Below are positions 20,629 to 60,389 of a stretch of 64,000 bases of DNA, piece after piece. The position numbers and the translations under genes are program-made. Source of the DNA: Clytia hemisphaerica (Eukaryota); the NCBI RefSeq assembly GCF_902728285.1, contig NW_027103826.1, positions 116,759-180,758 of the forward strand, in the 5' to 3' direction. The first letter of the stretch is position 1. Each line of letters begins with the position of its first letter. Under the pieces are notes generated by a model. That model had not been told where the DNA came from. It saw only the letters and a program-made list of their open reading frames with translations, and ran no database searches.

Positions 20629-20753
20629 TTAAAGAAAAATTGCAAAAATTATTTTTTTTTTAGATTTCTCAATTTTTGGCCTAAACTCACTCAAAAATGC
20701 TGAAAAACACCAAAAAATCACATTTTCAAATTTTTTTTTTCACTTTGTTTAAC

Positions 20754-21366: not shown

Positions 21367-22288
21367 TTAAAAAAGGTTAATGTGAAAAAAAATTTATATA
21401 ATAAGATATAGTCCAAAGTTTATCAATGATTGACTTCAAAAATTATCAAAAACGACAAAAAAGAGCCTTTTTTTTAGTCAAACAGGGATAAAGTTTTAAG
21501 CTGTATTTTTTTATTAAATGAAAAGTTTTTTAATATTTTTTCGCATTTATGACGTTCTAAGATTGACGAAATTCTGATACAAAAATGAAGATCATAGCGG
21601 TACAAGAAGTTGATTTTCTTCTTCTTCATTTTTCATCTTCGTTTTTCCATTTTTTAATTTTTTTCTTTTTTGATAATATTTTACTCCGAATTATCTTTTT
21701 AACGAGCCCAAAACCGTTAACTAATTCAAATTCTATCAAAATTTATCGAGGTTTGAAAATAAACTCTGCCAGCTAATTAGAAATAGACTTTACGAAATTC
21801 TCGCGGTTTTTCACCTTCAAAAGTCCTTCTAAGTGTTACAAAATTACAAAAGACTAAAGAGTAAAAAAAATGAAATATAGCCAATGGTTAGTGTGGAATA
21901 TTCAAGTTTTCCCAAGCAAGCAAAAGTGGTGCCTTTAAAGATTTACGCGGCATTTCACGGGTTGGCGGCATTTCACGGGTTGAATCTGTACTTTCTTCGT
22001 TTTGGGCGTTTTACATTTTTCAAATTCTGGCGATAGCGAAAAAATCCAGTGTTTACATGAAAACCACGCAGGCTGAGCAATATAGGTAGGGAATAAATCG
22101 CTTCAAACACTGAATATGAGATTGACTCTAGGTCGTTGACGTTCCATTTTTTTAGTCGTTTAGCATGCTAGACGATAACTTCAGTTCTATTGAAGAGCGT
22201 GAAAATTGTTATGTTGATGTATATTATAAAAGATTGTGAACTAGAAAATTCTAAAAAATATTTCGTAGTACATTCACATTAAAAGAAA

Positions 22289-26541: not shown

Positions 26542-28500
26542 GGATCAGGTGCAGTTAGCGTGGTCACTGGTTGGATTCTTTAGCAGTGGAGAGCACTGTT
26601 AAAGAATATAACCTAATGTCGTTTAACCTAATAATGTTATAAAATACAGACCAGAATATATTTCACTGTTAAACAATCCAACCTAGTCCACTGTTAAACA
26701 ATCCAACCTAGTCCACTGTTAAACAATCCAACCTAGTCCACTGTTTAACAATCCAACCTAGTCCACTGTTTAACAATCCAACCTAGTCCACTGTTTAACA
26801 ATCCAACCTAGTCCACTGTTTAACAATCCAACCTAGTCCACTGTTTTTTAACAATCCACCTAGTCCATACAGTCCAACTAGTCCACTGTTAACAATCCAA
26901 CCTAGTCCATGTTAAACAATTTGACCTAGTCCACTGTTAAACAATTTGACCTAGTCCACTGTTTAACAATTTAACCTATAGTCATGCCCGGTCCACTGTT
27001 AAACAATTTAACCTACAGTCATGTCCGGTTCACTGTTAAACAATCTGACGTAGTCCAACCCCTGGTCACTGTTTAACAATTTGACCTAGTCCACTGTTAA
27101 ACAATTTAACCTACAGCCATGTCCGATCCACTGTTAAACAATTTAACCTACAGCCATGTCCGGTCCACTGTTAAACAATCCAACTTAGTCCACTGTTTAA
27201 CAATCCAACCTAGTCCACTGTTTAACAATCCAACCTAGTCCACTGTTTAACAATCCAACCTAGTCCACTGTTAAACAATTTGACCTAGTCCACTGTTTAA
27301 CAATCCAACCTAGTCCACTGTTTAACAATCCAACCTAGTCCCACTGTTTAACAACAATCCAACCTAGTCCACTGTTAAACAATTTGACCTAGTCCACTGT
27401 TTAACAATCCAACCTAGTCCACTGTTTAACAATCCAACCTAGTCCACTGTTTAACAATCCAACCTAGTCCACTGTTTAACAATCCAACCTAGTCCACTGT
27501 TTAACAATCCAACCTAGTCCACTGTTTAACAATCCAACCTAGTCCACTGTTTAACAATCCAACCTAGTCCACTGTTTAACAATTTGACCTAGTCCACTGT
27601 TTAACAATCCAACCTAGTCCACTGTTTAACAATCCAACCTAGTCCACTGTTAAACAATTTGACCTAGTCCACTGTTAAACAATTTGACCTAGTCCACTGT
27701 TTAACAATTTAACCTATAGTCATGCCCGGTCCACTGTTAAACAATTTAACCTACAGTCATGTCCGGTTCACTGTTAAACAATCTGACGTAGTCCAACCCC
27801 TGGTCACTGTTTAACAATTTGACCTAGTCCACTGTTAAACAATTTAACCTACAGCCATGTCCGATCCACTGTTAAACAATTTAACCTACAGCCATGTCCG
27901 GTCCACTGTTAAACAATCCAACTTAGTCCACTGTTTAACAATCCAACCTAGTCCACTGTTTAACAATCCAACCTAGTCCACTGTTTAACAATCCAACCTA
28001 GTCCACTGTTAAACAATTTGACCTAGTCCACTGTTTAACAATCCAACCTAGTCCACTGTTTAACAATCCAACCTAGTCCACTGTTTAACAATCCAACCTA
28101 GTCCACTGTTAAACAATTTGACCTAGTCCACTGTTTAACAATCCAACCTAGTCCACTGTTTAACAATCCAACCTAGTCCACTGTTTAACAATCCAACCTA
28201 GTCCACTGTTTAACAATCCAACCTAGTCCACTGTTTAACAATCCAACCTAGTCCACTTTTTAACAATTTGACCTAGTCCACTGTTAAACAATTTAACCTA
28301 CAGCCATGTCCGGTCCACTGTTAAACAATCCAACTTAGTCCACTGTTTAACAATTTAACCTTAGTCATGTCCGGTCCACTGTTAAACAATCCAACCTAGT
28401 CCACTGTTAAACAATTCAACCTACAGTCATGTCCGGTCCACTGTTAAACAATTTGACCTAGTCCACTGATAAACATTCCAACCTAGTCCCATCCCTTGTC
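26542..28500 (+). repeat. Left arm of the giant element: unique terminus plus a ~1.85-kb minisatellite array (unit CCACTGTTTAACAATCCAACCTAGT, ~25 bp) with a ~730-bp higher-order periodicity
   Basis: Direct tandem units with variants (caatttgacctag, caatttaacctacagtcatgtccgg). Blocks at 26940..27180 recur at 27660..27900. Confidence 0.8.
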
Positions 28501-28699: not shown

Positions 28700-29950
28700 C
28701 ATGGTGTGATTTGCGTTGTCACTAAAAGAGGTAACGAGTGGTAAGGATGTGGTAACGAGTGGTAACGAGGTGGTAACGAGGTAACCAGTTAAATACGTTG
28801 GCCCTAAAAGGCTCTAATTTTGAATTACTCGATTCTGATGAATGTAGAGCAGGACAATGTTTCCAGTGAATATGATAGTGGAGTTGATGGTCCTGTTGAA
28901 TGTGCAGCAGGGGTTGGTGGTTTAGGTAAATGTGCATCAGAGTTTTATGGTTCTGGTGATTTTAATGGTGGAGTTGATAGTTCTGGTGAATGTGATGACA
29001 GAGTTGGTGTTTCTGGTGAATGGGAGGCAGAAGTTGATGGTTCTGGTTAATGTGCTGGTGGAGGTAACGTTACTGGTGAATTTGATGGTGGATTTGGTGG
29101 TTCTGGTGCATATGATTGTGGAGCAGGAGTTTGAGTTTCTTGTGGATGTAAGTTTGGAGCTTATAGGTATCTGGCAAAATAAGTCAAACACCGACAGTTG
29201 TTAATGTCTTTAGATAGATAGCATTTATCACAATTCTAGCCCTATAGAAAACTGTCAAACACTTGAATACAATATATCGAAATTCATGATAATCCATCCA
29301 TCCCAAGAACAACCAGACCTGATGTAGATCTACCAAAACTAACAGTCTTGCGCTAAGAAGCATCAGAACCAACATGTATTTCTGTAGAACCTTTATAACC
29401 ACAAGGATCTGTTGCATAACCACCAGAACAACCAGTTCCTGCACTGCAGAATCACCATAATCACAAGTTGCTGCTTAAGAATAAGCAGATCCTTTAGGTT
29501 TTGTTGCAGAATCACCAGAATAACAAGGTTCTGTTGCAAGGTCACCAGTTCATGTTGCAGAATCAACAGAACAAACATGTCCTGCTGCAGAATCACAAGG
29601 ACCACCAACTCTTCTATCACATTCACCTAAACCACCAACTCCTGATGCACATTCACCAGAACTACCAACTCTTGCTGCACATTCACCAAAACCAGCAGTT
29701 CCTGCGGCACATTCACCACAACCACTAGTCCCTACTGCAGATTCAACACAACCACCAGTTCCTGATGGACATTCACCAAAACCATGTTAACTAAAGCTGT
29801 AAAGGCATAAATCAGAATCGATTCTTTCGGTTTTACAATATTTGACTCTTTAGGGCTACCATTTTCAACTCGTTACCTCGTTACCACATCGTTACCACTC
29901 GTTACCAGCCGTTACCACTCGTTACCAGCCGTTACCACTCGTTACCACTT
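28700..29950. repeat. ~1.25-kb imperfect palindrome: GGTAACGAG mini-repeats and coding-like (GSGECD..VDGSG) 30 to 40-bp repeats on one arm, with their reverse complement on the other
   Basis: 28733..28790 (ggtaacgagtggtaacgagg..) pairs with 29866..29950 (ctcgttaccactcgttacc..). The 28820..29200 repeats are reverse-complementary to 29400..29780. The centre is near 29250..29350. Confidence 0.6.
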
Positions 29951-30754
29951 TTAGTAACAACGTGTGATTTAATGTATTTAGGAATTTGTATAAACTTTTT
30001 CTGCTTTTTCACACAGCCTACGTATTTATAAGGGCTACTTAGACTACACAATATATTGACGAACAATATTCGACAATATGGTTTGCGGACCGTAATGTAC
30101 GAAGTAAACAACTGGTACTCTATTATAAAAAGGAATTTTCTTTCTGTAAACAATCCCCCTTTATTGTTGGAATATTGCAAATCGAGCTGACAATATATTG
30201 CGGACACCTTTTCAATATATTGCCGACATTCAGCAATATACCATCAATATATTGCCCGACAATATATTGTGTAGTGTATGTAGCCCTATACGGTTTGAAA
30301 AGATGTTTTTACCGGTGTGAACCGGACACTCTCTATTGGTCATAACTCTATACCTAAATGGTTTGTCAGTGATTTGTTATCGGATATCGTATCTGTTCTC
30401 CGTTATGTCAGCTATTAAAATTAAAAAGTCATATAAAGATTTTTTTTAGCCAATCAGATTGCGTTTTGTCCTTGCGGCAAATGAGTAGAAGAAAAAAATA
30501 AAAACATATGTGTACTCCATTTTGAGAATGTGAGAATGAAGTTCAAGAAAAAGACTATTATTTATTTATCATGCATATTAAAAAGGCATTAACAATAGTG
30601 TCTACAATTTCTTCTTTTGTTCTTTCAAATCAAAAAAATACTTAAAGTTATATCTGGAAGCGTTTGCGTCGCTATTCACACATATATTTTTTTCTCATGG
30701 AAATTAATATTTCCACAAACGCAGGTTTTTCATATCATTGTCGACGCGTTTACT

Positions 30755-30936
30755 ATGGCTGCAGTGCATCGGAGATTTTTACAGAGATGGGGAGCATTAC
30801 TTTTAGGCAATGATAAAATTGCAATCATACATTTTCTACAAGGACAAGGTTTACTAAGTGTTGTCAAGATGTGTCAAACTTGTGGTTCGCCGATGCAACT
30901 TGAAGCTAATAGACAATGCCGTGATGGGTTTAGATG
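30755..30936 (+). CDS. IS1595/ISXO2-like (Merlin-superfamily) DDE transposase, exon 0 (ATG 30755; N-terminal zinc ribbon)
   Basis: MAAVHRRFLQRWGALLLGNDKIAIIHFLQGQGLLSVVKMCQTCGSPMQLEANRQCRDGFR(W) matches the IS1595 transposase zinc-ribbon N-terminus (..C..YL..RWP.G..CP.CG...). Donor tg|gtaagt is phase 2 and joins exactly to exon 1 (tg+g=W). Confidence 0.55.
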
Positions 30937-31822
30937 GTAAGTTTTTATCATGAAGTTGTAATCGTACCTTTAGTTTTGAGGCAATTTGAAATCCAACTTG
31001 CTCCCTTTGGGTTCTGGGTTAAGTTAAAGGCTCCTCCTTGCAAAAAGGCTAGAAATACATCTTAAAATAATTTATTACTTAGAATAAACACCCCTTCTTT
31101 TAAACACCTCCTCGGATAAAAGCCCCCTTTTTTAGGAAAATAATTAATAAACGTCTCCTCCTCAAATAAACGCTCTTCCCTGGAAGGGTTTTTTTATTTA
31201 AAAATAGGCTCTTAGTCGAAACTTTCATTTTGAGAGAGAAATGGATACTTCGACACACAAGAACAAGAACATCGATAATTTTTAAAAATGTTGTTATGGT
31301 ATAAAAATATATGTATCGCATTATCAAAAACAATTCTTCGTGTTTAATTTTTCAAAATTCTCGAATAAATGCGCACACCCCCTTAAAATCCAAAAAAACG
31401 AATTTTTCACGAATATGGCCCTAATTCGCAAAAGTTTCTTCAGAAAAATTAATCTCAGACAGGCAATTCGCAAAATATTTCTTTCGCGAAAGTTACTTTC
31501 TTTCAATCAATTTTTAGTCAGAGATAAAAAAATATTAAAATGATCTAAGAGACAATCATTAATTAATACAAATACATTTTCTAGTCCATAACAACTAACG
31601 TTTCCTTTTTTTCATCAAAACGTGATTAAAACAGTACGCATTTTTATATAATTTGCGAAAACTTCTTCCGTAAAAGTAATTTCGGAGAGCTCAATTCACG
31701 AAATATTTTCCGCGAAAATTACTTCCCTTAGGGTAGGAGCGATAATGGAATGTAGTTAGAAGGTCGGTTATGACAACATAAATTTTATCCAGACAATTTC
31801 TAACACAGATATTTTTGTTTAG

Positions 31823-32123
31823 GAGGTGTAACCGACCATGTCGCAGATGTTTGAGGCTCCGAGATGGGACAATATTTGAATCGTGGACGCATATTTCCCT
31901 TAGTGATTTATTTTTGATAATCTTCCTGTGGTCAAACAACGTTTCTATGACCAAAATAACGAATATTGTTGGAATACCAAAAAAAACAGTGATCAAAATG
32001 TTGCAGCTTCTTCGCCAAGTCTGTACGAATGATCTAGCCAGAAACCCAGTTGCTATTGGTGGTGGGGGGGGTGCTAATTTTGTTGTCCAGATTGACGAGA
32101 GCCAATTCCATCACAGGCAAAGA
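31823..32123 (+). CDS. Merlin/ISXO2-like transposase copy 1, exon 1
   Basis: Acceptor tttgtttag, donor AGA|gtatgt. Encodes RCNRPCRRCLRLRDGTIFESWTHISLSDLFLIIFLW..TKITNIVGIPKKTVIKMLQLLRQV..VAIGGGGGANFVVQIDESQFHHRQR. These are the second Cys pair, the HTH, and the first catalytic Asp of the DDE motif (V.IDES). Confidence 0.65.
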
Positions 32124-32324
32124 GTATGTTTTCATACGAGTGAGAGAGATTTTTAACTACATTTTGCTCAAAAGTTTGTCATTCTTTTAAATTTTTGATA
32201 GAATCGAATGCATATTTTGCAGTTTAGTCTTAACAAAAAAATTGAATATTTTCCAAAGTGCGTTCGACTTCATTACATAATGTTGTTTTGACCCTATTCT
32301 TTTAATTCTCGTTTCTTTATATAG

Positions 32325-32603
32325 GGAGGAAGAGGAAGAAGAGCGCAGGCACCTGTTTGGGTATTTGGCTTGGCCGATACTCAATACACACCCGCCAAAG
32401 GCTATATGGAAATTGTGAACAGGCGAAATAGGCCCACTCTCACTGCTGTAATTAATCGGGTTTTGAACCCTAACTCTGTCATACATAGCGATGAATGGCG
32501 TGCTTACAATAGGCTTCGAAACTTTGTACCGAACTGCATACAACACGATACCGTAAACCATACATACAACTTTGTCGATCCTCTAACAGGAGCCCACACA
32601 CAG
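32325..32603 (+). CDS. Merlin/ISXO2-like transposase copy 1, exon 2
   Basis: Acceptor tttatatag, donor CAG|gtaacc. Encodes GGRGRRAQAPVWVFGLADTQ..TLTAVINRVLNPNSVIHSDEWRAYNRLRNFVPNCIQHDTVNHTYNFVDPLTGAHTQ. This fits the ISXO2-like consensus (GGK.K.RGR...V.G.VER......L..II...V..GS.I.TDEW.GY..L..GY.H.TVNHS..FVDP.TG.HTN). Confidence 0.7.
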
Positions 32604-32809
32604 GTAACCAGACAATAATTTTTTGTAAAATTAGCCATTGGGCTCGGTACATTTTTTTAGTTCTCTGTAAAATTCTTGTAAAGTTTGCAGTTCCCTAAAA
32701 ACCCCACCCCACCCATAAAAGTAAAAGCTTTGAAAAGTGATATTTTTAACGTTTTTATATTTTAGAAAAGTTTATACTTTTTTCAAACCCTTTCTTTTTT
32801 TTTCATTAG

Positions 32810-32910
32810 AACATTGAATCGTACTGGAACCGTTTTAAGCTGAAACTGAAAGCTATGAAAGGTGTCGAACGAGCCAATTTACAAAGTTACATGAACGAGT
32901 TCATGTGGAG
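32810..32910 (+). CDS. Merlin/ISXO2-like transposase copy 1, exon 3
   Basis: Acceptor ttcattag, donor ag|gtaatt. Encodes NIESYWNRFKLKLKAMKGVERANLQSYMNEFMW (consensus NTIEGFWS.LKR...G...L..YL.EF.FR). Confidence 0.6.
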
Positions 32911-33232
32911 GTAATTATTTTTCAATCGGAAAGAAATGATTTGAAGCTACCTGACACTGGCAGGCCTCTCATAACAGATGAGATGAAGTTTTTATAAGAT
33001 ACTTTAATGATTGGTCATTTGAAGTAATAACAATGACGTGTTCTTTAGAAAAAGTAACAAAATTGTTTTATTACTGGTTAACGACCAACCGAATCAAATG
33101 AGAGCTTGTAAAAATTCAATCTCGTCCCTCTCATAAGGAATAAAACAGCTAGTCCTAAATTTTTATTGGGTTTAAACGTCATTTGATAATCCATAGATTA
33201 GGCAATTTAATGATTTTGTAATTCTTTTTTAG

Positions 33233-33305
33233 GGACTGGTATGGACTAGACCAAACATTTGACAACATAATCAACCGGATAAATATTGATTATCCACAAG
33301 CTTAA
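33233..33305 (+). CDS. Merlin/ISXO2-like transposase copy 1, exon 4 (stop TAA 33303..33305)
   Basis: Acceptor tttttag. Encodes (R)DWYGLDQTFDNIINRINIDYPQA*. The five exons sum to 936 nt, which is 312 codons, so the phases are consistent. Confidence 0.55.
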
Positions 33306-34503
33306 GTTTGCTTTCATTGAAGTATGATTTTTATGTTTTCTTTTGTTATTGATTCACAAGTCATAGTTTGACTTCTAGAGACTAAAGCTATTTTTAGGTA
33401 TTTTGTATGTATATGGTATAACATTTCATTATGCAGAACAAAGACTCTTACCATTAAAAATATACTTTAACTCTTTATATTTTGCCCTTTCCGCCAAAAT
33501 TTGTCTCGCGATATCGCGTGGGATCGTCGATTCGCGAAATCAAATCGTCAAATCCACGCGAAATTTTTGAAACTACCATTTTAGCAAACAAAGTTATCAA
33601 AACCATGCAATTTTGGTAAAATATGTCCATTTTTAGGGTCTTTCGCGAAATTATACTCACGCGAAAGTCTTGACTCACAAAATTAAATCCTATTAAAGTA
33701 GCCTTAATCTGTCTTATCTTGAAATTGTTCACATTGGTTAGTGCTCCTTCTTTTCCAGGCAACGTTGAAAAAAAGGTAAACAAACAGGGTAAAAAGGCAC
33801 GTATAGTAGTGACAGGAACAATGTGAAAAGTATACTTGGGTGCGATGTATACTTGTCTTGGGTGCGAGGAATACTTATGAAATGTACAGTGCTCAGTAAA
33901 ATTGTTTTGTGTAAGTTCCTGTGAAAAGTGCTGAACATCCTAGTTTGGAAGATAGGCAAAAAAGTGTTCTTTTTCGCAAAGGTTGATTTTAGTTAAATCG
34001 GAGTCAAATGGGTCAATCATGAAAATTAATTCTTGCGAAATATATAGTCAAATAATCTTGATTTCCTTAAGATTTGCTCAAAAATTAAGAACATCTTAAA
34101 AACATGCCAAGGTTGAAATGAAGAAGAAAAGTCTACTAAGGGATTCTTAACGCTTAAATAACAGACACAAAACATAATTTCAACATTGTTTCAATGTCCA
34201 ACTAATGTCTGATGTTGAAATAACATTTTTTGAACAACAAATTTCAAAGCTACTTTTTTGGATTCATTTTCTCAAAAAAATTGTTTTTAGCACTTACAAG
34301 TACCATAACGGGCGTTTTTCAGACTTGTCGAGCGCCCTCTCCACCCGATATAATTTATTTATAGAAGTGTATTTCTCAGGTCCATTGACCTCTATGAAAC
34401 AATCTTACATTTTTACAATTTATAGATCTTATCATTCGTTTGTCAATTCTGTTATAGAGTTTTACAGTTAGGTACCTGGGCCTCTAACCCACTCTTCTTA
34501 TAA

Positions 34504-35455
34504 TCATGTTGTTTCCGTCGAAAATTTCTTTAAATAGAGTTTAGTCCTAGGACTACCTCTCACTTTCCATATACCACTCTTGTCTTTTTCATTCGATGTT
34601 TTTTCTTTTGCTTTACGATGCCATTGTTTTATTATCTCCCGTTCTTTCCTTGAAAAATCGTCTGATACCCTGAAATCATCTTTATCTAGTTTGTGGGCTG
34701 ATGCAAGTATTCTAATCCTTTCTTCTTCACTCTCGAGAGTAACTTTCAATGGTCTCCATCGTTCATTTGTATACATTTCATCTTTACGAGCACCTATGCG
34801 TCTTCTACCTTGATTATCGTCACATCGAAAACCCATTTGTTGTTTCAGTATTCTTTCTATGAAATCTTTGTCACCAACTCGTTGCTCTTCTTCGTTTTCG
34901 TGCTTGTTTTCACCTAAATCATGCACCATGATGTTGCACTTGGTTGATTTGAGCCAACGCTCCTCTTCGTTCACTGATTTGATGAAACTTTTTATGGTCA
35001 CCTCTTGTTTTTTGTAGATCTTCTTTGGTGACTTCTGCATATGATTGTTTTTTTGTTTCTGTGTTGTTGAGCTGTGTTTCAGATCGTTTGTTGTTCCGTT
35101 CTTTGTTGACGTCTTTTTTTTTCATTAGCTTCTCGATTTTCCTTTCTAGAGAGGTTATTCTCTCGTTGAAACCTAATTTCAATCCATGATGTTCATCTTT
35201 GTCTGCTTCTTTCGTTGTGATGTCACTGCGAGCTTTTTGTCTGCTTGTTTTAATCCTCTCAAATAAGAGTGGCGTTATTGTAACACAATTTCCACATTCG
35301 AAGCGCCGGCTTTTATATTGCAGACAAAGCTGAATCTGATAGGCCGGGAGCTCAGAGCAAGCATAATGGACAAGTCTATCACATCTCCTACATTGTAAGG
35401 TGTCGTTATCTTCTATGATGGTGTTTATCAAACAGTTATTGGTTGTGCAATACAA
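34504..35455 (-). pseudogene. Frameshifted duplicate of the L1 ORF1p-like gene (tandem-duplication copy 1)
   Basis: Two overlapping frames (34504..35040 and 34919..35455) together cover the same protein as 39355..40302. Indels of 4 nt net break the frame. Confidence 0.55.
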
Positions 35456-36671
35456 TATCCATAATTTTTTTGAATTTCCTTGTTAGAATTTTCGTTGATT
35501 TCCGTCATATTGTTGCATTTTCAGGATCGTGGCAGCACAGAAAAAATTTGACGTCAATATATAAGGGGGGGTAAACCGGCCGGAGTACCATTTTCAACTA
35601 GTAATATCTCCTAAACCAAGCATTTTATGAGGCTTTTGTAGCTACCAATCGAAAGAGGACAAAATTCTGAACAAAAAAAACTGGTTTTGGGCGCCACCTA
35701 GCCGTTAACGATTATCACCATGCATTAACTCCTTTGATACCGTTCCAGCCAAAATCGTTCCTATTGGAACGACGTTTTCTCCAGCCTCTGATAGAAAGAA
35801 ATTTTCAATCGCTTTGAAACTGCATTTTCTTGAAAGTTGATACTTTTAATTAAAACGAAAACGACGTTTTCATACCGTGAAAAGCACAGCTCAAAATCAT
35901 ATATTTACGCTGTGCCGACGAATCGAGATTCTATTCATCGCGCAATCAGCGAAGACAAAAGTAACCATGACGACCATCCAAGATCTTGGATGAGCGTCAT
36001 AGTCGATATTTTTATTCCCGTCGTTGAAAACACAACTTACAAAAAGTCATCAATGCTTTTTAAAAAGAGTCAGTGATAGAGAATCATAACATAAAGTCTG
36101 TCTATTATTTCGATTCAATTAAAGTGACATTTCCATAATTAAAAGTTTAGTAATTACTGTTATACATTTGGGGATCATGTAAGAGATTTCTTTCGAAATA
36201 AACTCATTTCAACTAAACTTGGAGGTTGTTTCTGGGGAATTCGTAAATAGTAAACTGCATACTGATACAGTCTGCTAGACATTAATATGGTAATATTTGC
36301 TCTTCATCTTTGATTTTTTTTACAGTGATTAGATTGACACATGCGCGATAAAATTTCTATTATTTTGTCTTCAGAGGTTACTATTTTCTTTGAAAACTTA
36401 ACCTCTGATACTCAGGGTAACGTTTTCAAGTCTTTCATTAGTAAGTACGTTTCCTTTTTTTCATCAAAACGTGATTAAAACAGTACGCATTTTTATATAA
36501 TTTGCGAAAACTTCTTCCGTAAAAGTAATTTCGGAGAGCTCAATTCACGAAATATTTTCCGCGAAAATTACTTCCCTTAGGGTAGGAGCGATAATGGAAT
36601 GTAGTTAGAAGGTCGGTTATGACAACATAAATTTTATCCAGACAATTTCTAACACAGATATTTTTGTTTAG

Positions 36672-36969
36672 GAGGTGTAACCGACCATGTCGCAGATGTT
36701 TGAGGCTCCGAGATGGGACAATATTTGAATCGTGGACGCATATTTCCCTTAGTGATTTATTTTTGATAATCTTCCTGTGGTCAAACAACGTTTCTATGAC
36801 CAAAATAACGAATATTGTTGGAATACCAAAAAAAACAGTGATCAAAATGTTGCAGCTTCTTCGCCAAGTCTGTACGAATGATCTAGCCAGAAACCCAGTT
36901 GCTATTGGTGGTGGGGGTGCTAATTTTGTTGTCCAGATTGACGAGAGCCAATTCCATCACAGGCAAAGA
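36672..36969 (+). CDS. Merlin/ISXO2-like transposase copy 2, exon 1. This is the duplicated paralogue; its unit has no exon 0, so it is probably 5'-truncated
   Basis: Near-identical to 31823..32123 with one Gly codon fewer. There is no upstream zinc-ribbon exon inside its 4.85-kb unit. Confidence 0.5.
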
Positions 36970-37170
36970 GTATGTTTTCATACGAGTGAGAGAGATTTTT
37001 AACTACATTTTGCTCAAAAGTTTGTCATTCTTTTAAATTTTTGATAGAATCGAATGCATATTTTGCAGTTTAGTCTTAACAAAAAAATTGAATATTTTCC
37101 AAAGTGCGTTCGACTTCATTACATAATGTTGTTTTGACCCTATTCTTTTAATTCTCGTTTCTTTATATAG

Positions 37171-37452
37171 GGAGGAAGAGGAAGAAGAGCGCAGGCACCT
37201 GTTTGGGTATTTGGCTTGGCCGATACTCAATACACACCCGCCAAAGGCTATATGGAAATTGTGAACAGGCGAAATAGGCCCACTCTCACTGCTGTAATTA
37301 ATCGGGTTTTGAACCCTAACTCTGTCATACATAGCGATGAATGGCGTGCTTACAATAGGCTTCGAAACTTTGTACCGAACTGCATACAACACGATACCGT
37401 AAACCATACATACAACTTTGTCGTCGATCCTCTAACAGGAGCCCACACACAG
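37171..37452 (+). CDS. Merlin/ISXO2-like transposase copy 2, exon 2
   Basis: Same as copy 1 exon 2 with a 3-nt insertion (..NFVVDPLTG..). Confidence 0.5.
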
Positions 37453-37658
37453 GTAACCAGACAATAATTTTTTGTAAAATTAGCCATTGGGCTCGGTACA
37501 TTTTTTTAGTTCTCTGTAAAATTCTTGTAAAGTTTGCAGTTCCCTAAAAACCCCACCCCACCCATAAAAGTAAAAGCTTTGAAAAGTGATATTTTTAACG
37601 TTTTTATATTTTAGAAAAGTTTATACTTTTTTCAAACCCTTTCTTTTTTTTTCATTAG

Positions 37659-37759
37659 AACATTGAATCGTACTGGAACCGTTTTAAGCTGAAACTGAAA
37701 GCTATGAAAGGTGTCGAACGAGCCAATTTACAAAGTTACATGAACGAGTTCATGTGGAG
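37659..37759 (+). CDS. Merlin/ISXO2-like transposase copy 2, exon 3
   Basis: Identical splice sites and coding sequence to copy 1 exon 3. Confidence 0.5.
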
Positions 37760-38086
37760 GTAATTATTTTTCAATCGGAAAGAAATGATTTGAAGCTACC
37801 TGACACTGGCAGGCCTCTCATAACAGATGAGATGAAGTTTTTATAAGATACTTTAATGATTGGTCATTTGAAGTAATAACAATGACGTGTTCTTTAGAAA
37901 AAAGTAACAAAATTGTTTTTATTACTGGTTAACGACCAACCGAATCAAATGAGAGCTTGTAAAAATTCAATCTCGTCGTCCCTCTCATAAGGAATAAAAC
38001 AGCTAGTCCTAAATTTTTATTGGGTTTAAACGTCATTTGATAATCCATAGATTAGGCAATTTAATGATTTTGTAATTCTTTTTTAG

Positions 38087-38159
38087 GGACTGGTATGGAC
38101 TAGACCAAACATTTGACAACATAATCAACCGGATAAATATTGATTATCCACAAGCTTAA
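38087..38159 (+). CDS. Merlin/ISXO2-like transposase copy 2, exon 4 (stop 38157..38159)
   Basis: Identical to copy 1 exon 4. Confidence 0.5.
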
Positions 38160-39354
38160 GTTTGCTTTCATTGAAGTATGATTTTTATGTTTTCTTTTGT
38201 TATTGATTCACAAGTCATAGTTTGACTTCTAGAGACTAAAGCTATTTTTAGGTATTTTGTATGTATATGGTATAACATTTCATTATGCAGAACAAAGACT
38301 CTTACCATTAAAAAATATACTTTAACTCTTTATATTTTGCCCTTTCCGCCAAAATTTGTCTCGCGATATATCGCGTGGGATCGTCGATTCGCGAAATCAA
38401 ATCGTCAAATCCACGCGAAATTTTTGCTACCATTTTAGCAAACAAAGTTATCAAAACCATGCAATTTTGGTAAAATATGTCCATTTTTAGGGTCTTTCGC
38501 GAAATTATACTCACGCGAAAGTCTTGACTCACAAAATTAAATCCTATTAAAGTAGCCTTAATCTGTCTTATCTTGAAATTGTTCACATTGGTTAGTGCTC
38601 CTTCTTTTCCAGGCAACGTTGAAAAAAAGGTAAACAAACAGGGTAAAAAGGCACGTATAGTAGTGACAGGAACAATGTGAAAAGTATACTTGGGTGCGAT
38701 GTATACTTGTCTTGGGTGCGAGGAATACTTATGAAATGTACAGTGCTCAGTAAAATTGTTTTGTGTAAGTTCCTGTGAAAAGTGCTGAACATCCTAGTTT
38801 GGAAGATAGGCAAAAAAGTGTTCTTTTTCGCAAAGGTTGATTTTAGTTAAATCGGAGTCAAATGGGTCAATCATGAAAATTAATTCTTGCGAAATATATA
38901 GTCAAATAATCTTGATTTCCTTAAGATTTGCTCAAAAATTAAGAACATCTTAAAAACATGCCAAGGTTGAAATGAAGAAAAGTCTACTAAGGGATTCTTA
39001 ACGCTTAAATAACAGACACAAAACATAATTTCAACATTGTTTCAATGTCCAACTAATGTCTGATGTTGAAATAACATTTTTTGAACAACAAATTTCAAAG
39101 CTACTTTTTTGGATTCATTTTCTCAAAAAAATTGTTTTTAGCACTTACAAGTACCATAACGGGCGTTTTTCAGACTTGTCGAGCGCCCTCTCCACCCGAT
39201 ATAATTTATTTATAGAAGTGTATTTCTCAGGTCCATTGACCTCTATGAAACAATCTTACATTTTTACAATTTATAGATCTTATCATTCGTTTGTCAATTC
39301 TGTTATAGAGTTTTACAGTTAGGTACCTGGGCCTCTAACCCACTCTTCTTATAA

Positions 39355-40302
39355 TCATGTTGTTTCCGTCGAAAATTTCTTTAAATAGAGTTTAGTCCTA
39401 GGACTACCTCTCACTTTCCATATACCACTCTTGTCTTTTTCATTCGATGTTTTTTCTTTTGCTTTACGATGCCATTGTTTTATTATCTCCCGTTCTTTCC
39501 TTGAAAAATCGTCTGATACCCTGAAATCATCTTTATCTAGTTTGTGGGCTGATGCAAGTATTCTAATCCTTTCTTCTTCACTCTCGAGAGTAACTTTCAA
39601 TGGTCTCCATCGTTCATTTGTATACATTTCATCTTTACGAGCACCTATGCGTTCTACCTTGATTATCGTCACATCGAAACCCATTTGTTGTTTCAGTATT
39701 CTTTCTATGAAATCTTTGTCACCAACTCGTTGCTCTTCTTCGTTTTCGTGCTTGTTTTCACCTAAATCATGCACCATGATGTTGCACTTGGTTGATTTGA
39801 GCCAACGCTCCTCTTCGTTCACTGATTTGATGAAACTTTTTATGGTCACCTCTTGTTTTTGTAGATCTTCTTTGGTGACTTCTGCATATGATTGTTTTTT
39901 TGTTTCTGTGTTGTTGAGCTGTGTTTCAGATCGTTTGTTGTTCCGTTCTTTGTTGACGTCTTTTTTTTTCATTAGCTTCTCGATTTTCCTTTCTAGAGAG
40001 GTTATTCTCTCGTTGAAACCTAATTTCAATCCATGATGTTCATCTTTGTCTGCTTCTTTCGTTGTGATGTCACTGCGAGCTTTTTGTCTGCTTGTTTTAA
40101 TCCTCTCAAATAAGAGTGGCGTTATTGTAACACAATTTCCACATTCGAAGCGCCGGCTTTTATATTGCAGACAAAGCTGAATCTGATAGGCCGGGAGCTC
40201 AGAGCAAGCATAATGGACAAGTCTATCACATCTCCTACATTGTAAGGTGTCGTTATCTTCTATGATGGTGTTTATCAAACAGTTATTGGTTGTGCAATAC
40301 AA
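39355..40302 (-). CDS. LINE-1 ORF1p-like protein (Transposase_22-like RRM plus C-terminal domain) with an N-terminal PHD-like C4HC3 zinc finger and a coiled coil; 315 aa, intact
   Basis: The C-terminal half (KCNIMVHDLGE...FIERILKQQMGF...RWRPLKVTLESEEERIRILASAHKLDKDDFRVSDDFSRKEREIIKQW) parallels L1 ORF1p (NLRIIGVPE...R.IIVKF.K...KE.IL.AAREK....G..IRL.AD.SAET...RREW). The N-terminus is CLINTIIEDNDTLQCRRCDRLVHYACSELP..C..C, followed by a K/E-rich coiled coil. There is no RT or endonuclease ORF nearby. Confidence 0.6.
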   Translation of the reverse strand: MYCTTNNCLINTIIEDNDTLQCRRCDRLVHYACSELPAYQIQLCLQYKSRRFECGNCVTITPLLFERIKTSRQKARSDITTKEADKDEHHGLKLGFNERITSLERKIEKLMKKKDVNKERNNKRSETQLNNTETKKQSYAEVTKEDLQKQEVTIKSFIKSVNEEERWLKSTKCNIMVHDLGENKHENEEEQRVGDKDFIERILKQQMGFDVTIIKVERIGARKDEMYTNERWRPLKVTLESEEERIRILASAHKLDKDDFRVSDDFSRKEREIIKQWHRKAKEKTSNEKDKSGIWKVRGSPRTKLYLKKFSTETT

Positions 40303-41809
40303 TATCCATAATTTTTTTGAATTTCCTTGTTAGAATTTTCGTTGATTTCCGTCATATTGTTGCATTTTCAGGATCGTGGCAGCACAGAAAAAATTTGACG
40401 TCAATATATAAGGGGGGGTAAACCGGAGTACCATTTTCAACTAGTAATATCTCCTAAACCAAGCATTTTATGAGGCTTTTGTAGCTACCAATCGAAAGAG
40501 GACAAAATTCTGAACAAAAAAAACTGGTTTTGGGCGCCACCTAGCCGTTAACGATTATCACCATGCATTAACTCCTTTGATACCGTTCCAGCCAAAATCG
40601 TTCCTATTGGAACGACGTTTTCTCCAGCCTCTGATAGAAAGAAATTTTCAATCGCTTTGAAACTGCATTTTCTTGAAAGTTGATACTTTTAATTAAAACG
40701 AAAACGACGTTTTCATACATACCGTGAAAAGCACAGCTCAAAATCATATATTTACGCTGTGCCGACGAATCGAGATTCTATTCATCGCGCAATCAGCGAA
40801 GACAAAAGTAACCATGACGACCATCCAAGATCTTGGATGAGCGTCATAGTCGATATTTTTTATTCCCGTCGTTGAAAACACAACTTACAAAAAGTCATCA
40901 ATGCTTTTTAAAAAGAGTCAGTGATAGAGAATCATAACATAAAGTCTGTCTATTATTTCGATTCAATTAAAGTGACATTTCCATAATTAAAAGTTTAGTA
41001 ATTACTGTTATACATTTGGGGATCATGTAAGAGATTTCTTTCGAAATAAACTCATTTCAACTAAACTTGGAGGTTTCTGGGGAATTCGTAAATAGTAAAC
41101 TGCATACTGATACAGTCTGCTAGACATTAATATGGTAATATTTGCTCTTCATCTTTGATTTTTTTTACAGTGATTAGATTGACACATGCGCGATAAAATT
41201 TCTATTATTTGTCTTCAGAGGTTACTATTTTCTTTGAAAACTTAACCTCTGATACTCAGGGTAACGTTTTCAAGTCTTTTCATTAGTAAGAAAACGCCCC
41301 GCAAACTTTCTCATTTCTCAATTGTTCTCTTTCTGGCGGTATTGAAAGAGTTAAAACAACGCTCCGTGCCTGCTATTACGGTTCTCTAGAGAATTGGACT
41401 CGTATATAGAAGAACATTAAGAAGAACATCCCATCTGAAAATTGAGAAAATAAAGTCCAAATAATACGTAAATACGATTTTAGAACAAAATTAAAATGCC
41501 TTGCGCATGATTTTATTTTCGTCACCCGGTAATGCAGAAATGAAGAGTTTTTAGATTTGGCCGCGGGTTGAATTTTTTTCATTCATTCATTCATTCATTT
41601 AATGAATGAAAATGAAATGGGATGTCTTTTCCCCCAAAAGAGCAAGAAAAAAAATTTAATCACGTGTTTTTTTTTCTTTCACGTTTTTTTTCTTTTGTAT
41701 CCCCTTTTCATTTTTCTTTCTTTATTTGTTGGCTTGAACGTCAGACGTTCACATTAGTAAACTTTGAGGGAGATTTCATTTCGGTCATTTGCCAATTGAA
41801 ATCGTAATC

Positions 41810-43521
41810 ATGACCTTTGAAGACATATTAGCGATTTGTGAAGATGAGCAAGTTTTGATAAGGGAGCTGATGGATGCTGGCTTATTAGCGAGTACAAGAA
41901 AATGTATGAACCGGAGAAAACACGAAGACGATATTCAGATGATATTATTGCCAGATATGAAGACTTGGTAAGACGTTTTAATTTGCTTTTGTTTACCCTG
42001 AAAAATCATTTACGTTTCTATGAAGCTCTTTCTCCTTTCATGAATCTGATAAATATCAATCTCAAAGATGTTTGATACTTTCATTTGAAGTCTTAAAAGC
42101 CTTTAAATATAAAATATATCAAGAAACAAAGTCTAATAAAATATCAACACAATATATCAGCAGTAAACAAATAACTGACGCTTAAAAGCGGCAATTTTTT
42201 AATCCCCAGTAAGTTAATTATTTTTAACTTATTTTTTGCCTACATGTTTTTAAGGCGATGCCCAAGATGTACAAGCAAAGCTTCATTCAAGACGGGGTCG
42301 TTTTTTTCGCAAACAAATATACCACTTTCAAAATGGATTCAAGGCATTGATAGATGGGCACGCCAGATGAGCCTTAGGGTAATGATATATTTAAAAAAGA
42401 GGACACAATGAAAAAAACAGACCTTTATGTCCTTTATCGTAAATACTAACCTGATATTCATATGCTGAATTTTCTATCGGTACGTTTTTAAAGCTCTAAA
42501 GACACAATGAAAATATACCATCTACGTAGGCTAGGTCATCTTTTCAAAGCCCTACCTTAAGCTTAAGTAGCTAAATGCATACCCAGCAGGCATGGGACGT
42601 TGTTTTAACGTCCAAAATACGTTTTAAGAAATTTTAAGCTCTTAACAATTTCGGTCCAGTTTAAAAATAAAAACCAGTAAACAGTTTAAAATGTCTGCGA
42701 AATTTTCATGTAATAAAATATACTTTGATTCTTTAGGAGATTGCTGAGGATTTGGACTTGTCGATTCCTACAACAAGCCAAATGATGAAGCATTTTCGAG
42801 AGCAGTGTCAAAGTTTTTTCGACCGCAATCTTCATGAAACTGGTGGCCCTGGTATTCAAGTAAAAGTTAAAGAACTTAAGGTAATACCATTTTTACCGGT
42901 TGAAAGAGAGATCGCTACAATCGGTACAAAATCCTTTTTGCTTATTACCTAACCCTAACAAGAAACTATTTAAAAACAAAAGGTTGTTGAATCAAAACTA
43001 ACCAGATGGCCCGGCTGGTATCCTACTTAAAATTTGGGTATTTCTTAAAAAAGAGAATAGATAACATCGGGTGCCTAGGATTTGTTACTCTTAATCTAGA
43101 CTCAAATTAGTTTTATACTTTTTTTCAATAGAAATGCACCAACACGTGTAATATTCTTATCGCGTTAGATGGCAGTTGCGGACGAGGATACCTTTTCCAC
43201 AATACCAATGGAAGATTCCAGGAAGAAGATTATATGTTTGTGTCACCAATCAAGTCTGGAACCATGGTCTTCACCGACATTCGCGATTTAAACGTAAGGC
43301 CAAATGTTGCCATGTCCAATACTCTGGAGTTGTTTCAAGGCAATGACGATCAAGCGACACAAGCAATTAGATGGCTCAGGCACTTCAGAGGGGTACAATG
43401 TCAAAAGGCTGGTGCCCTATTATCTGAATATAATTTGCGCTTTTGGGTCGATGATGGACTGGAATTCCATGAAAGATTTTTTCAAGCTTTCGTAAGAAAC
43501 TATGAAAATGAATTTGTATAA
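41810..43521 (+). pseudogene. Divergent third IS1595/Merlin-like transposase paralogue, probably degenerate or catalytically inactive. Exon-like blocks at 41810..41967, 42737..42880 and 43132..43521
   Basis: Block A, MTFEDILAICEDEQVLIRELMDAGLLASTRKC.., is the N-terminal F.DE..C..L motif. Block B, EIAEDLDLSIPTTSQMMKHFREQC...TGGPGIQVKVKELK, aligns to ITNIVGIPKKTVIKMLQLLRQVC...GGGGGANFVVQIDES with the first catalytic D replaced. Block C, ..ILIALDGSCGRGY..FTDIRDLNVRPNVAMSNTLELFQGN..RHFRGVQCQKAGALLSEYNLRFWV, aligns to IHSDEWRAY..FVDPLTGAHTQNIESYWNRFK..LQSYMNEFMW. The GGK/RGR linker segment is missing and the A-to-B phases do not join cleanly. Confidence 0.4.
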
Positions 43522-43639
43522 ACTAAAATATATTGATCGCTAATTGTTGATTAAAGTGATAGTTTTTTATGGATCTATGAAAATCTTATATTTTTTATTG
43601 TTCTTTTTTTGAGAAAAAAAATATAAACTTAATTCCTAT

Positions 43640-44882
43640 GCTTTCATCGCCTATGCTTTCATCAATTTGACTAGGTCAAATTGTTTAACAGTGAACCGGA
43701 CATGGCTCTAGGTTGGATTGTTAAACAGTGGAAGGTTGGATTGTTTAAAAGTGGACTAGGTCAAATTGTCAGTGGACCGGACATGACTGTAGGTTAAATT
43801 GTTAAACAGTGGACTAGGTTGGATTGTTAAACAGTGGACTAGGTCAAATTGTTTAACAGTGGACCGGACATGACTGTAGGTTAAATTGTTAAACAGTGGA
43901 CTATAGGTTGGATTGTTTAACAGTGGACTAGGTTGGATTGTTAAACAGTGGACTAGGTTGGATTGTTAAACAGTGGACTAGGTTGGATTGTTAAACAGTG
44001 GACTAGGTCAAATTGTTTAACAGTGGACTAGGTTGGATTGTTAAACAGTGGACTAGGTCAAATTGTTTAACAGTGGACCGGACATGACTATAGGTTAAAT
44101 TGTTAACGTGGACTAGGTGGTTGGTTACTAGTGGACTAGAGGTTGGATTGTTTAACAGTGACCGGACATGGCTAGGGTTGGATTGTTAAACCGTGGATTA
44201 GGTTTGGCTTGTTAAACAGTGGACTGTAGGTTGGCTTGTTTTCACAGTGGACTTGGGGGTTGTTTAAACAGTGGACTGGTTGGATTGTTAAACAGTGGAC
44301 TAGGTTGGATTGTTTAAACAGTGGACTAGGTTCAAATTGTTTACAGTGGACTGTTGGCTTGTTAAACAGTGGACTAGGTCAAATTGTTTAACAGTGGACC
44401 GGATGTGTGGTTTGTTAAACAGTGGACTAGGTTGGATTGTTAAACAGTGGACTAGGTTGGATTGTTAAATAGTGGACTAGAGGTTGGATTGTTTAACAGT
44501 GAACCGGACATGGCTAGGTTGGATTGTTAAACAGTGGATTAGGTTGGATTGTTAAACAGTGGACTAGGTTGGATTGTTAGTGAAATTGTTAAACAGTGGA
44601 CTAGGTTGGATTGTTAAACAGTGGACTAGGTTGGATTGTTAAACAGTGGACTAGGTTGGATTGTTTAACAGTGGACTAGGTTGGATTGTTTAACAGTGAA
44701 CTAGGTCAGATTGTTTAACAGTGGACCGGACATGATTATAGGTTGGATTGTTTAACAGTGAAATACTTTCTGGTCTGTATTTTATAACATTATTAGGTTA
44801 AACGACATTAGGTTATATTCTTTAACAGTGCTCTCCACTACTAAAGAATCCAACCAGTGACCACGCTAGCTGCACCTGATCC
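43640..44882 (-). repeat. Right arm of the giant element: the same minisatellite in inverted orientation plus a unique terminus
   Basis: CTAGGTTGGATTGTTAAACAGTGGA units are the reverse complement of the left array. 44760..44882 is the reverse complement of 26542..26650. Confidence 0.8.
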
Positions 44883-49381: not shown

Positions 49382-49924
49382 CACAATGAAAACTGACCTT
49401 CCGTTTCTTGTTTTATTTATCTATGATGAAAATATCAAAAAATATTCACCGAGCCATCAAGTGTATTTCTGGATGTGCGTACTCTGTATTCGTGCTTTTG
49501 TCTCTGAATAAAAACGGAGAAAGTAAATATAATACCAATACATCATACCATTGCAAAATTGCATTTTTACTTTATGTGGCATACATCTACATATTACACT
49601 ACGTATCATTTTTGATTGCAACTCGTTTTACTACCTCATCTACTAAATGGAGGTAATTAAGATAGATAATTAAAGAAAGTCTATTATGCTATCAATGAAA
49701 TACGGAAATGAATCAATTAAAGTGAATATAAACAAGCAACATGCTGAATGGACCTACCTGATTAACATCAGATGAAAATAAGAAAAAAGTGACAATAATT
49801 GTACAAAAATTCAGAATGGAAAAATAAAGCTTGTGTGTTGAATAATGTAAAATGGTAAAAAGGAATTTCCCCAAATACGAAAATCACTTAAACCATTCAG
49901 GCTCAAAAAACCTTTTAAGCTGTT

Positions 49925-51020
49925 TTTGGCCCAAATTTGCCCAAAATAATTTTCCTTAAAAATCTGGCTCCGTCACATTTTGGGCATTGCCATTTTGCAT
50001 TATTGTGCAAAAAATCAGAAAGAAAATATGAGTCAACATTGAGAAAAGCTATATTTTCTTATTTGGTTAAAGGGAATTTCCCCAAAAATACGAAAATCCG
50101 TCTTTTAAGGCAAATAAGAATTTCCCGGGAAAAACCACTTCAGTCATTCTTTAGAGAATCTTGCACCCCATCTTTGTACAAAAAATCAGAAAAAAGTAAT
50201 AACAGGATTTTGCATAAAGTCCAAAAAACCCTATATTAGGCAGTTTTTGACCCAAATTTGCCCAAATATATTTTTTTTCGAAAATCTGGCTCCGTCACAT
50301 TTTAGGCATTGCCATTTTGCATCATTGTGCAAAAAATCAGAAAAAAATAATGAGTCAACATTGAGAAAAGCTATATTTTCTTATTTGGTTAAAGGGAATT
50401 TCCCCAAAAATACGAAAATCCGTCTTTTTAGGCAAATAAGAATTTCCCGGGAAAAACCACTTCAGTCATTCTTTAGAGAATCTTGCACCCCATCTTTGTA
50501 CAAAAAATCAGAAAAAAGTAATAACAGGATTTTGCATAAAGTCCAAAAAACCCTATATTAGGCAGTTTTTGGCCCAAATTTGCCCAAATATATTTTTTTT
50601 CGAAAATCTGGCTCCTTCACATTTTAGGCATTGCCATTTTGCATCATTGTGCAAAAAATCAGAAAAAAATAATGAGTCAACATTGTTAAAAGCTATATTT
50701 TCTTATTTGGTTAAAGGGAATTTCCCCCAAAATACGAAAATCCGTTTTTTAAGGCGAATAAGAATTTTCCGGGAAAAACCACTTCAGCCATTCTTTAGAG
50801 AATCTTGCCCTCCATCTTTGTACAAAAAATCAGAAAAAAGTAATGACAGGATTTTGCAAAAAGTCCAAAAAACCCTATTTTTAGGTAGTTTTTGGCCCAA
50901 ATTTGCCCAAATTAACTTTTTCTCAAAAATCGGGCTCCGTCACGTTCTGGGCATTGCCATTTTGCATCATTGTGCAAAAAATCAGAAAAAACTAATGAGC
51001 CAATCCTGAGAAAAGCTGGT
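49925..51020 (+). repeat. Satellite: ~322-bp unit x ~3.4 copies (it produces the near-identical ORFs 49937.., 50247.., 50569..), followed by a (GACGAACG)n microsatellite at 51025..51055
   Basis: Units start at ~49925, 50247, 50569 and 50890, with >95% identity. Confidence 0.8.
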
Positions 51021-60280: not shown

Positions 60281-60389
60281 CTGGAAAATAATCTAAGCAT
60301 TTTTTAGATCAGGATGGTCGAGAGAGAAAAAGTAAGGGCCAAAATTGAAATATAATTGAATCTATGGATTTTATACATCTTGTTGAAAG

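Follow-up and report, generated by a model that had tools for sequence, protein, structure and literature searches.

An ORF1-only retroposon encoding a PHD finger-bearing ORF1 protein in Clytia hemisphaerica, probably an internal-deletion derivative of a CR1/L2-lineage LINE

Why does a gene for a protein resembling ORF1p of the long interspersed element (LINE) L1 stand alone, without an ORF2, close to the remnants of a DNA transposon? The question is raised by an open reading frame (ORF) of 315 amino acids (39355..40302 with the stop codon, minus strand, taken from the ORF listing) in a stretch of 64,000 nucleotides of the hydrozoan Clytia hemisphaerica (contig NW_027103826.1, positions 116,759 to 180,758), which is called the window below. 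An earlier note, made from the sequence alone, had described a stand-alone gene embedded inside a DNA transposon and had considered it as cargo, as a captured or domesticated nucleic-acid chaperone, or as part of a chimeric element. The ORF is present, albeit without an ATG and with a second copy in the window. Our analysis indicates that it is probably the sole gene of a non-autonomous non-LTR (long terminal repeat) retrotransposon of about 1.2 kb, which arose by internal deletion from a hydrozoan LINE of the CR1/L2 lineage. The element consists of the following parts:

39202..40403, minus: complete ORF1-only retroposon of ~1.2 kb (copy A), delimited by the 5' TGACGTCA motif, the 3' end and the alignments to L010 and L013
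40396..40403, minus: 5'-terminal TGACGTCA, a CRE-like palindrome ~45 nt upstream of the ATG, at the conserved 5' end
40305..40355, minus: true start ATG at 40355 and the codons before the 5-bp duplication (MTEINENSNKEIQKNYG), matching the family N-termini
40304..40295, minus: 5-bp tandem duplication TATTG TATTG, the cause of a frameshift, in both duplicated copies
39310..39340, minus: block 1 (GGTTAGAGGCCC..CCTAACTGTAAAAC) of the 3' untranslated region (3'UTR), conserved in several subfamilies
39264..39281, minus: remnant of the parent LINE's ORF2 end, with final codons and stop (AAGATCTATAAATTGTAA; cf. AAAGATCTCCATAAATTGTAA = KDLHKL* of L014), identified by its match to L014
39221..39252, minus: 3'-terminal two-stem hairpin (outer stem UGUUUC/GAAAUA, inner stem AGGUC/GACCU), identified by motif and fold
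39202..39218, minus: A/T-rich terminal tail (CTTCTATAAATAAATTA), which differs in length and sequence among copies; flanks diverge beyond it
34351..35556, minus: copy B of the element, inside the other of two duplication units

The ends of the element are shared with copies located elsewhere. Identity to the window element is 94.3-94.6% in L010 and L013; both alignments stop exactly at position 39202, and the flanks are unlike beyond this point. An identical protein, P0024, is encoded on five contigs that differ in their flanks and have common 5' and 3' ends, one copy being 5'-truncated (L001-L005 have unlike flanks; L001 is the truncated one). On the P0024 contigs the 5' end is sharp (..TTTGACGTCAAATAAAATTTGTGCGGCCACGC..ATG), and an A/T-rich tail that varies comes after the 3' end (..TTTCATAGAGGTCGATAGACCTGAGAAATACAATTCAATAAATAA). 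Non-LTR retroposons are typically recognised by such features: sharp ends in common, truncation at the 5' side and A/T-rich tails of variable make-up. Only 0-2 synonymous changes separate the five P0024 copies, and this near-identity points to recent amplification. The TGACGTCA motif also occurs at the 5' ends of L002-L006, L009, L016, L019, L021 and the autonomous LINE L008, and is a possible internal promoter element. A layout without ORF2 recurs at 36-60% protein identity (L006, L009, L012, L015, L016, L017-L019, L020), and defined ends with ORF1 kept and ORF2 absent are found in the window element, L002-L004, L009, L012, L015, L016 and L017-L020. The whole family comprises 7375 cluster representatives at a threshold of E<=1e-3, or 1828 at E<=1e-10, most of them 320-450 amino acids long and matched end to end.

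The window copy itself is damaged. The listed ORF starts with a TTG of the bacterial code, an in-frame stop lies at 40332..40330, and no ATG is found before about residue 110. An alignment of 21 homologues placed the full-length family N-termini about 27 residues upstream of this start (pattern MA..E..N.E...K.G.CTP..CF). The corresponding N-terminal peptide of the window copy is complete (MTEINENSNKEIQKNYGYC), and its frame differs from that of the long ORF. If one TATTG unit is deleted, an intact ORF of 331 amino acids results. In copy B the ORF is split by the same 5-bp duplication and four extra inserted bases (three indel events). Disruption extends beyond the window copy: L010, L013 and the Clytia gene model P0029, all of the same subfamily, are frameshifted or contain stops. 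The copy in the window represents a single insertion from a subfamily that is rather old and has mostly degenerated.

On two contigs of the JGI set, L006 and L011, the element or its tail adjoins long intron-free host-like ORFs. In L011 no more than the final ~35 nt of the tail remain, beside unrelated ORFs. The neighbours are a TPR/TTC38-like ORF of 324 amino acids, and an acyl-CoA-synthetase-like ORF together with a lectin-like ORF. Because these ORFs are intron-free, the contigs may be derived from cDNA (metatranscriptome). In that case the elements may be transcribed, at least within host transcripts.

The protein was modelled with AlphaFold2 from the family alignment. Its architecture is L1 ORF1p-like and comprises a finger, a helical region, an RNA recognition motif (RRM) and a domain at the C-terminus (CTD):

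40132..40296, minus: PHD-type C4HC3 zinc finger, ORF residues 3-57 (Pfam PHD, MLL1 PHD3, ligand columns)
39790..40119, minus: helical, putative coiled-coil region, residues 62-171 (AlphaFold2 helices 62-82, 97-123 and 139-171)
39508..39789, minus: RRM-like domain, residues 172-265 (predicted fold)
39367..39507, minus: CTD-like domain with a long helix and a beta-hairpin, residues 266-312 (predicted fold)

The earlier note had read a C4HC3-like finger from the letters, and this assignment is borne out. All eight ligands are present in the window ORF, and across 96 diverse relatives their columns hardly vary; the window finger begins with a ligand pair of the form C-x4-C and not C-x2-C. The Pfam PHD profile scores below its 24-bit cut-off on the window ORF (E=0.0043, 17.5 bits) and matches 58 of the 96 relatives. 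A search of PDB sequences with the family profile identified MLL1 PHD3 (3lqh_A) with E=4.6e-4. The proposed similarity of the C-terminal part to RRM and CTD of L1 ORF1p is likewise supported. Residues 170-312 are modelled with a predicted local distance difference test score (pLDDT) of ~90 as beta-alpha-beta-beta-alpha-beta, a long helix and a beta-hairpin, preceded by long helices; the RRM is predicted to be of the non-canonical ORF1p type, and a CTD is predicted to follow it. In a Foldseek search against the PDB, the top 12 matches are exclusively human L1 ORF1p. They include the trimer chains (E=2e-7 to 3e-5, ~187 columns; best 2yko_A with E=2e-7 and 187 columns), 2ldy (RRM-CTD) and 2w7a (RRM), and generic RRMs appear only from E~1e-2. 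Structural alignment superposed 161 residues onto 2yko_A and 117 onto the RRM-CTD structure 2ldy_A. Within the 187 columns the last helix (139-171) is paired with the coiled coil of 2yko, the pLDDT of the region 62-171 being only 40-77.

At the level of sequence profiles, the assignment to Transposase_22 was not confirmed. None of PF02994, PF17490 and PF17489 was matched by the window ORF at E<=10, Transposase_22 included, and this profile was found in none of the 96 relatives. Searches of PDB sequences with phmmer and hmmsearch yielded PHD fingers only and no ORF1p. Since Pfam Transposase_22 is unmatched, the link to L1 ORF1p rests on the fold. In hhalign comparisons with human L1 ORF1p, a family profile of 22 sequences gave E=1.1e-3 and one of 96 sequences E=3.5e-4, at probabilities of 20-37%; the human sequence was validated by Pfam (Transposase_22, E=1.7e-65). 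The block alignment proposed in the earlier note (NIMVHDLGE/NLRIIGVPE, RPLKVTL/RHIIVRF, FRVSDDFS/IRLTADLS) is in the same register as that found by hhalign.

Is this ORF related to a LINE with an ORF2? The most distant homologue examined, P0031, has 29% identity, the same architecture and a 5' end with TGACGTCA. Directly after its ORF1, two independent contigs contain a frame with an APE endonuclease (Pfam Exo_endo_phos_2, E=1.4e-14). The family is therefore a family of LINE ORF1 proteins. The 3' end was traced by scanning a metagenome collection for the 3' motif, which identified L014, a contig with a reverse transcriptase (RT) ORF of 590 amino acids (RVT_1, E=5e-35) that ends with ..EKDLHKL*; the same hairpin and tail come after it. 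L006 and L014 share an identical tail string of 30 nt. The stretch AAGATCTATAAATTGTAA in the 3'UTR of the window element matches the final ORF2 codons and the stop of L014, and the 3' tails of both fold alike. In the window, the hairpin motif occurs only in the two element copies, with 0 occurrences expected by chance. In a MAFFT alignment the stems are invariant in all sequences other than L020, which was mis-registered. This divergent branch keeps both stems with other sequences (ACAAGU/ACUUGU and AGGUAC/GUACCU), which as a single sequence lends qualitative support only. Recognition of a shared 3' stem-loop by the RT of a LINE is established for L2-type elements such as UnaL2 of the eel. Because both LINE ends and the final ORF2 codons are kept, the ORF1-only elements are best understood as internal-deletion derivatives.

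The earlier note had suggested searching other copies for a contiguous ORF2, whose presence would make the ORF part of an ordinary truncated LINE. An ORF2 with an APE endonuclease does lie downstream of P0031. The window element, in contrast, is not an ordinary truncated LINE, because it is internally deleted, has kept both LINE ends and has multiplied without ORF2. In agreement with the earlier note, no RT or endonuclease ORF follows the ORF within the window. The whole subfamily is without ORF2.

A further observation concerns the other part of the 3'UTR. Block 1 (GGTTAGAGGCCC..CCTAACTGTAA) is similar to the complete terminal module found in subfamily P0007/P0008 (L017-L019), whose end reads ..GTTTAGAGGCCCACTGAGCGCCTATAACTGTAA.GTCTCTATAATAATA and is without the other hairpin. 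Elements of the window type may carry two tandem tail modules, perhaps one for each of two partner LINE families.

These results suggest the following course of events. The element has retained four parts of a LINE: its 5' end, made up of TGACGTCA and a 5'UTR of short length; ORF1; a few codons from the end of ORF2; and the hairpin at the 3' end together with the A/T-rich tail. It would be transcribed from an internal promoter, and its ORF1p, by analogy with L1 probably a trimeric RNA chaperone, would coat its own RNA in cis. The ORF2p of a partner LINE, with endonuclease and RT, would then recognise the shared 3' hairpin and tail and insert the RNA of the element by target-primed reverse transcription. 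The insertion in the window presumably took place near IS1595-like remnants; carrying the frameshift caused by the 5-bp duplication, it would later have been copied in a 4.85-kb tandem duplication, unless the latter is an artefact.

Comparison of copies, as proposed in the earlier note, revealed constraint on the protein: between ORF2-less copies, the ratio of nonsynonymous to synonymous substitution rates (dN/dS) is 0.12-0.16. The values are 0.12 for P0005/P0006 (dS 0.44), 0.16 for P0007/P0008 (dS 0.40) and 0.16 for P0001/P0007 (dS 1.24). It is a tentative further possibility that hydrozoans harbour old, diversified and self-propagating ORF1-only half-LINE lineages, in which purifying selection maintains a PHD-bearing ORF1p that acts in cis and which hijack the ORF2p of a partner via the shared 3' hairpin. 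Host co-option of some copies is less likely.

The surroundings of the ORF, from which the idea of a transposon cargo originated, contain the following features:

31598..36445 and 36447..41290, no strand: two head-to-tail duplication units of 4.85 kb, 99.2% identity
~30617..32950, plus: IS1595/ISXO2-like (Merlin-type) DDE transposase fragments (DDE_Tnp_IS1595, E=5.7e-7)
36664..37467, plus: IS1595/ISXO2-like transposase fragment in the duplicate unit
41789..43521, plus: diverged set of paralogous IS1595/ISXO2-like transposase sequences
54125..56002, minus: fragmented RT of a different LINE family (Pfam RVT_1, E=5.6e-10), without hairpin tail

Each 4.85-kb unit contains one copy of the element and IS1595-like transposase fragments, and the ORF occurs twice in the window because of this head-to-tail duplication. 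The units differ by no substitution and by 39 indel columns (about 22 events), all of which are of the homopolymer or 2-4-bp tandem-duplication type. This pattern suggests that the duplication either happened very recently or is an artefact of assembly or long reads, and because of it small frameshifts in the window have to be read with caution. The first transposase (30617..32950) is interrupted between its zinc-ribbon part (..CRDGFRW) and the remainder. Comparison of the transposase-like regions (30400-34340 against 41291-43700) by tblastx and by blastn yielded no match. A search for terminal inverted repeats (TIRs) around the IS1595-like transposase and the element yielded no convincing candidate and none that encloses both. 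As a candidate for the partner, the RT fragment at 54125..56002 had to be rejected: in short tblastx matches it has 24-46% amino acid identity to the RT of L014, and it shares no tail motif with it. The earlier note had likewise called this RT unrelated.

A ~25-bp satellite (unit about GGTTGGATTGTTAAACAGTGGACTA) forms two arrays, at 26542..28489 and 43669..44882. They are mutually inverted, ~80% identical, and bracket an interval of ~15 kb with the transposase fragments and the ORF1-only elements. The arrays could have been the arms, long and filled with repeats, of a composite element of the foldback kind.

Three other explanations were weighed against an internally deleted LINE with its own ends. 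That the ORF is cargo or a chimeric part of an IS1595/Merlin-like cut-and-paste transposon is the least probable of them. It is suggested by the IS1595-like DDE fragments, which lie 1.4-2.5 kb away on the opposite strand, and by the position of the whole interval between the inverted satellite arrays. No TIRs, however, were found that surround transposase and ORF together, which leaves the claimed embedding inside a DNA transposon without proof; it is simpler to assume an insertion that is nested or adjacent. L010, L013 and copies of other subfamilies are located in entirely different flanks. Cargo, capture and chimerism as considered in the earlier note are also at odds with a discrete 1.2-kb unit whose LINE-type termini recur in unrelated flanks and whose 3' terminus is common to the RT-bearing LINE L014. 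Very unlikely, too, is a host gene domesticated from a LINE ORF1, comparable to L1TD1 of mammals, that encodes a PHD-bearing RNA- or chromatin-binding protein. Strong purifying selection, the many relatives with intact ORFs and the existence of Clytia gene models for family members would fit such a gene. A multi-copy family with unrelated flanks, near-identical copies and thousands of diverged relatives would not, nor would the LINE 5' and 3' termini kept by the copies; moreover, frameshifts or stops occur in the window copy as well as in L010, L013 and P0029, the relatives closest to it.

According to the third explanation, ORF1-only copies might be dead-on-arrival by-products of full-length LINE RNAs from which ORF2 is time and again deleted or spliced out before retrotransposition, so that no self-propagating lineage exists and the conservation of ORF1 reflects selection on the parent. 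We consider this unlikely. The length of the 3'UTR varies from ~0 nt in L020 to ~30 nt in L012/L016, ~150 nt in the window element and ~230 nt in L002, which fits several independent deletions. Repeated origins have precedents, as HAL1 elements arose several times independently in mammals (PMC5753468), and loss of ORF2 is recurrent in telomeric elements of Drosophila (PMC13534243). On the other hand, the five near-identical P0024 copies with unlike flanks are all ORF2-less and have one junction, and sister subfamilies separated by a dS of ~0.4 share a junction (L012/L016; L017/L019). Furthermore, among the branches with readable downstream sequence only the most distant one, P0031, adjoins an ORF2; for P0030 (L021) the downstream sequence is too short to tell.

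Several points weigh against the derivation from a CR1/L2-lineage LINE as proposed here, or against parts of it. Mobilisation in trans, the action of ORF1p in cis, its trimerisation and the promoter activity of TGACGTCA are predictions only. Homology to L1 ORF1p is weak at the sequence level, given the marginal hhalign result and the missing Pfam match. A full-length partner LINE was not found on one contig; the link to the parent is made through partial LINE contigs from two different subfamilies (L007/L008 with ORF1 and APE; L014 with RT and tail). We infer the CR1/L2-lineage (Jockey-superfamily) parentage from the Pfam family of the APE and the type of ORF1, and not from an RT phylogeny. 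No unambiguous target-site duplication was identified: TTATAT in the window is a weak candidate, and L002-L004 offer nothing convincing. Finally, the constraint on ORF1 could be that of the parent LINEs, if derivatives were spawned repeatedly.

The window has additional features. A single-exon ORF of 339 amino acids (18293..19312, minus strand) with a Fibrinogen_C domain (E=3.9e-42) and a weak PAN-like N-terminal part is probably a host gene of the fibrinogen-related domain (FReD) type. At 28714..29962, a unit of ~1.2 kb possesses long imperfect terminal inverted repeats composed of GGTAACGAG-type short repeats, with arms of up to 168 nt. Its interior is of low complexity and H/Q/N-rich, and the unit resembles a miniature inverted-repeat transposable element (MITE) or a foldback-like element. 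Further local repeats lie at 20013..21374, 49904..51017 and 60364..61751. Their kinds are a ~625-bp direct repeat of 99.5% identity, a ~320-bp tandem repeat of 86-94% identity and a short-period repeat, which yields CVG/FLRGS-rich pseudo-ORFs on both strands.

The assignment has consequences for annotation. The Clytia hemisphaerica gene models P0029, P0014 and P0019 are copies of this transposable element (TE) ORF1 family and bear the NCBI names 'myb-like protein X', 'DDB_G0284459-like' and 'PF3D7_1120000-like'. P0029 follows a frameshifted frame of a copy that is, judged by eye, roughly 85-90% identical to that of the window. The three models are probably TE annotations mislabelled as host genes. 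Family members in Clytia are annotated as 'uncharacterized' or 'myb-like' host proteins because the family is invisible to Pfam Transposase_22, and their ORFs should be masked as TE. An apparent orphan ORF1p gene in a DNA transposon thus becomes an ordinary, explainable object.

How does the element compare with known systems? The architecture of its protein is already known. ORF1 of type IIC consists of an N-terminal PHD and Tnp22 (coiled coil, RRM and CTD) and occurs in L2 subgroup 6 and CR1 subgroup 5 (Metcalfe & Casane 2014, PMC4120745); ORF1 of the window element is probably of this type. In both type IIC groups the top structures are 2yko_A for Tnp22 and 2vpb_A for the PHD, whereas 3lqh_A is the top PHD structure of L2 subgroup 5, a type IIB group (PMC4120745). 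The window element agrees with type IIC in domain order, in 2yko_A as the best Tnp22 structure, in a PHD finger as the best structure for the N-terminus and in the existence of a family member upstream of an APE ORF2. In contrast to type IIC LINEs, ORF1 stands without ORF2 in the window and in most relatives, and the first ligand pair is C-x4-C. The best PHD structure is 3lqh_A, the top match of the type IIB group, instead of 2vpb_A. With human LINE-1 ORF1p (Transposase_22, Tnp_22_trimer and Tnp_22_dsRBD; 2yko, 2ldy and 2w7a) the protein shares the helix-RRM-CTD fold, but it is only 14-18% identical, has no Pfam match and a marginal hhalign score, and contains an extra PHD finger at the N-terminus. 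L1TD1, a domesticated single-copy host gene of mammals derived from L1 ORF1 (PMC4161310), likewise encodes an ORF1p-derived protein without an adjacent ORF2. Unlike L1TD1, the family described here is multi-copy and has the termini of a LINE; some of its copies are degenerate, and that of the window contains a frameshift.

Loss of ORF2 is also known from Drosophila. HeT-A and other ORF1-only telomeric elements of the Jockey clade have lost ORF2 and depend on the ORF2p of related elements (PMC13534243). This loss is frequent in telomeric elements and is said to be absent in non-telomeric Jockey elements, and ORF1-only lineages among the telomeric elements can spawn further ORF1-only lineages (PMC13534243). 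The window element resembles this group in its probable Jockey-superfamily affiliation and in the loss of ORF2. It differs in that ORF1 of the Drosophila elements is Gag-like, with CCHC knuckles, and that these elements form head-to-tail arrays at telomeres, whereas the copies described here are dispersed in ordinary flanks.

A parallel in organisation is provided by the HAL1 ('half-L1') elements of mammals, which derive from L1, are non-autonomous and have ORF1p as their only product (Smit 1999; Bao & Jurka 2010, as referred to in PMC5753468). As far as that account goes, both have kept ORF1 and lost ORF2, possess both LINE ends, occur as dispersed amplified copies and presumably use the ORF2p of a partner. 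The window element differs from HAL1, as described there, by its cnidarian parent of probable CR1/L2 lineage, by a hairpin and an A/T-rich microsatellite-like tail instead of poly(A), by the PHD finger and by its length of 1.2 kb, which is much shorter. Judged by its partner tail type, the Exo_endo_phos_2 APE and the CR1/L2-type ORF1, the window element is an analogue and not a member of HAL1. If the ORF1-only lineages are self-sustaining, they constitute a natural experiment on LINE functions that act in cis (ORF1p) and those that can be borrowed in trans (ORF2p). Loss of ORF2 with retention of ORF1, earlier known from mammalian L1 (HAL1) and from telomeric elements of Drosophila, is now seen in a stringent-type, that is hairpin-tailed, cnidarian LINE of probable CR1/L2 lineage, together with signs of selection on ORF1.

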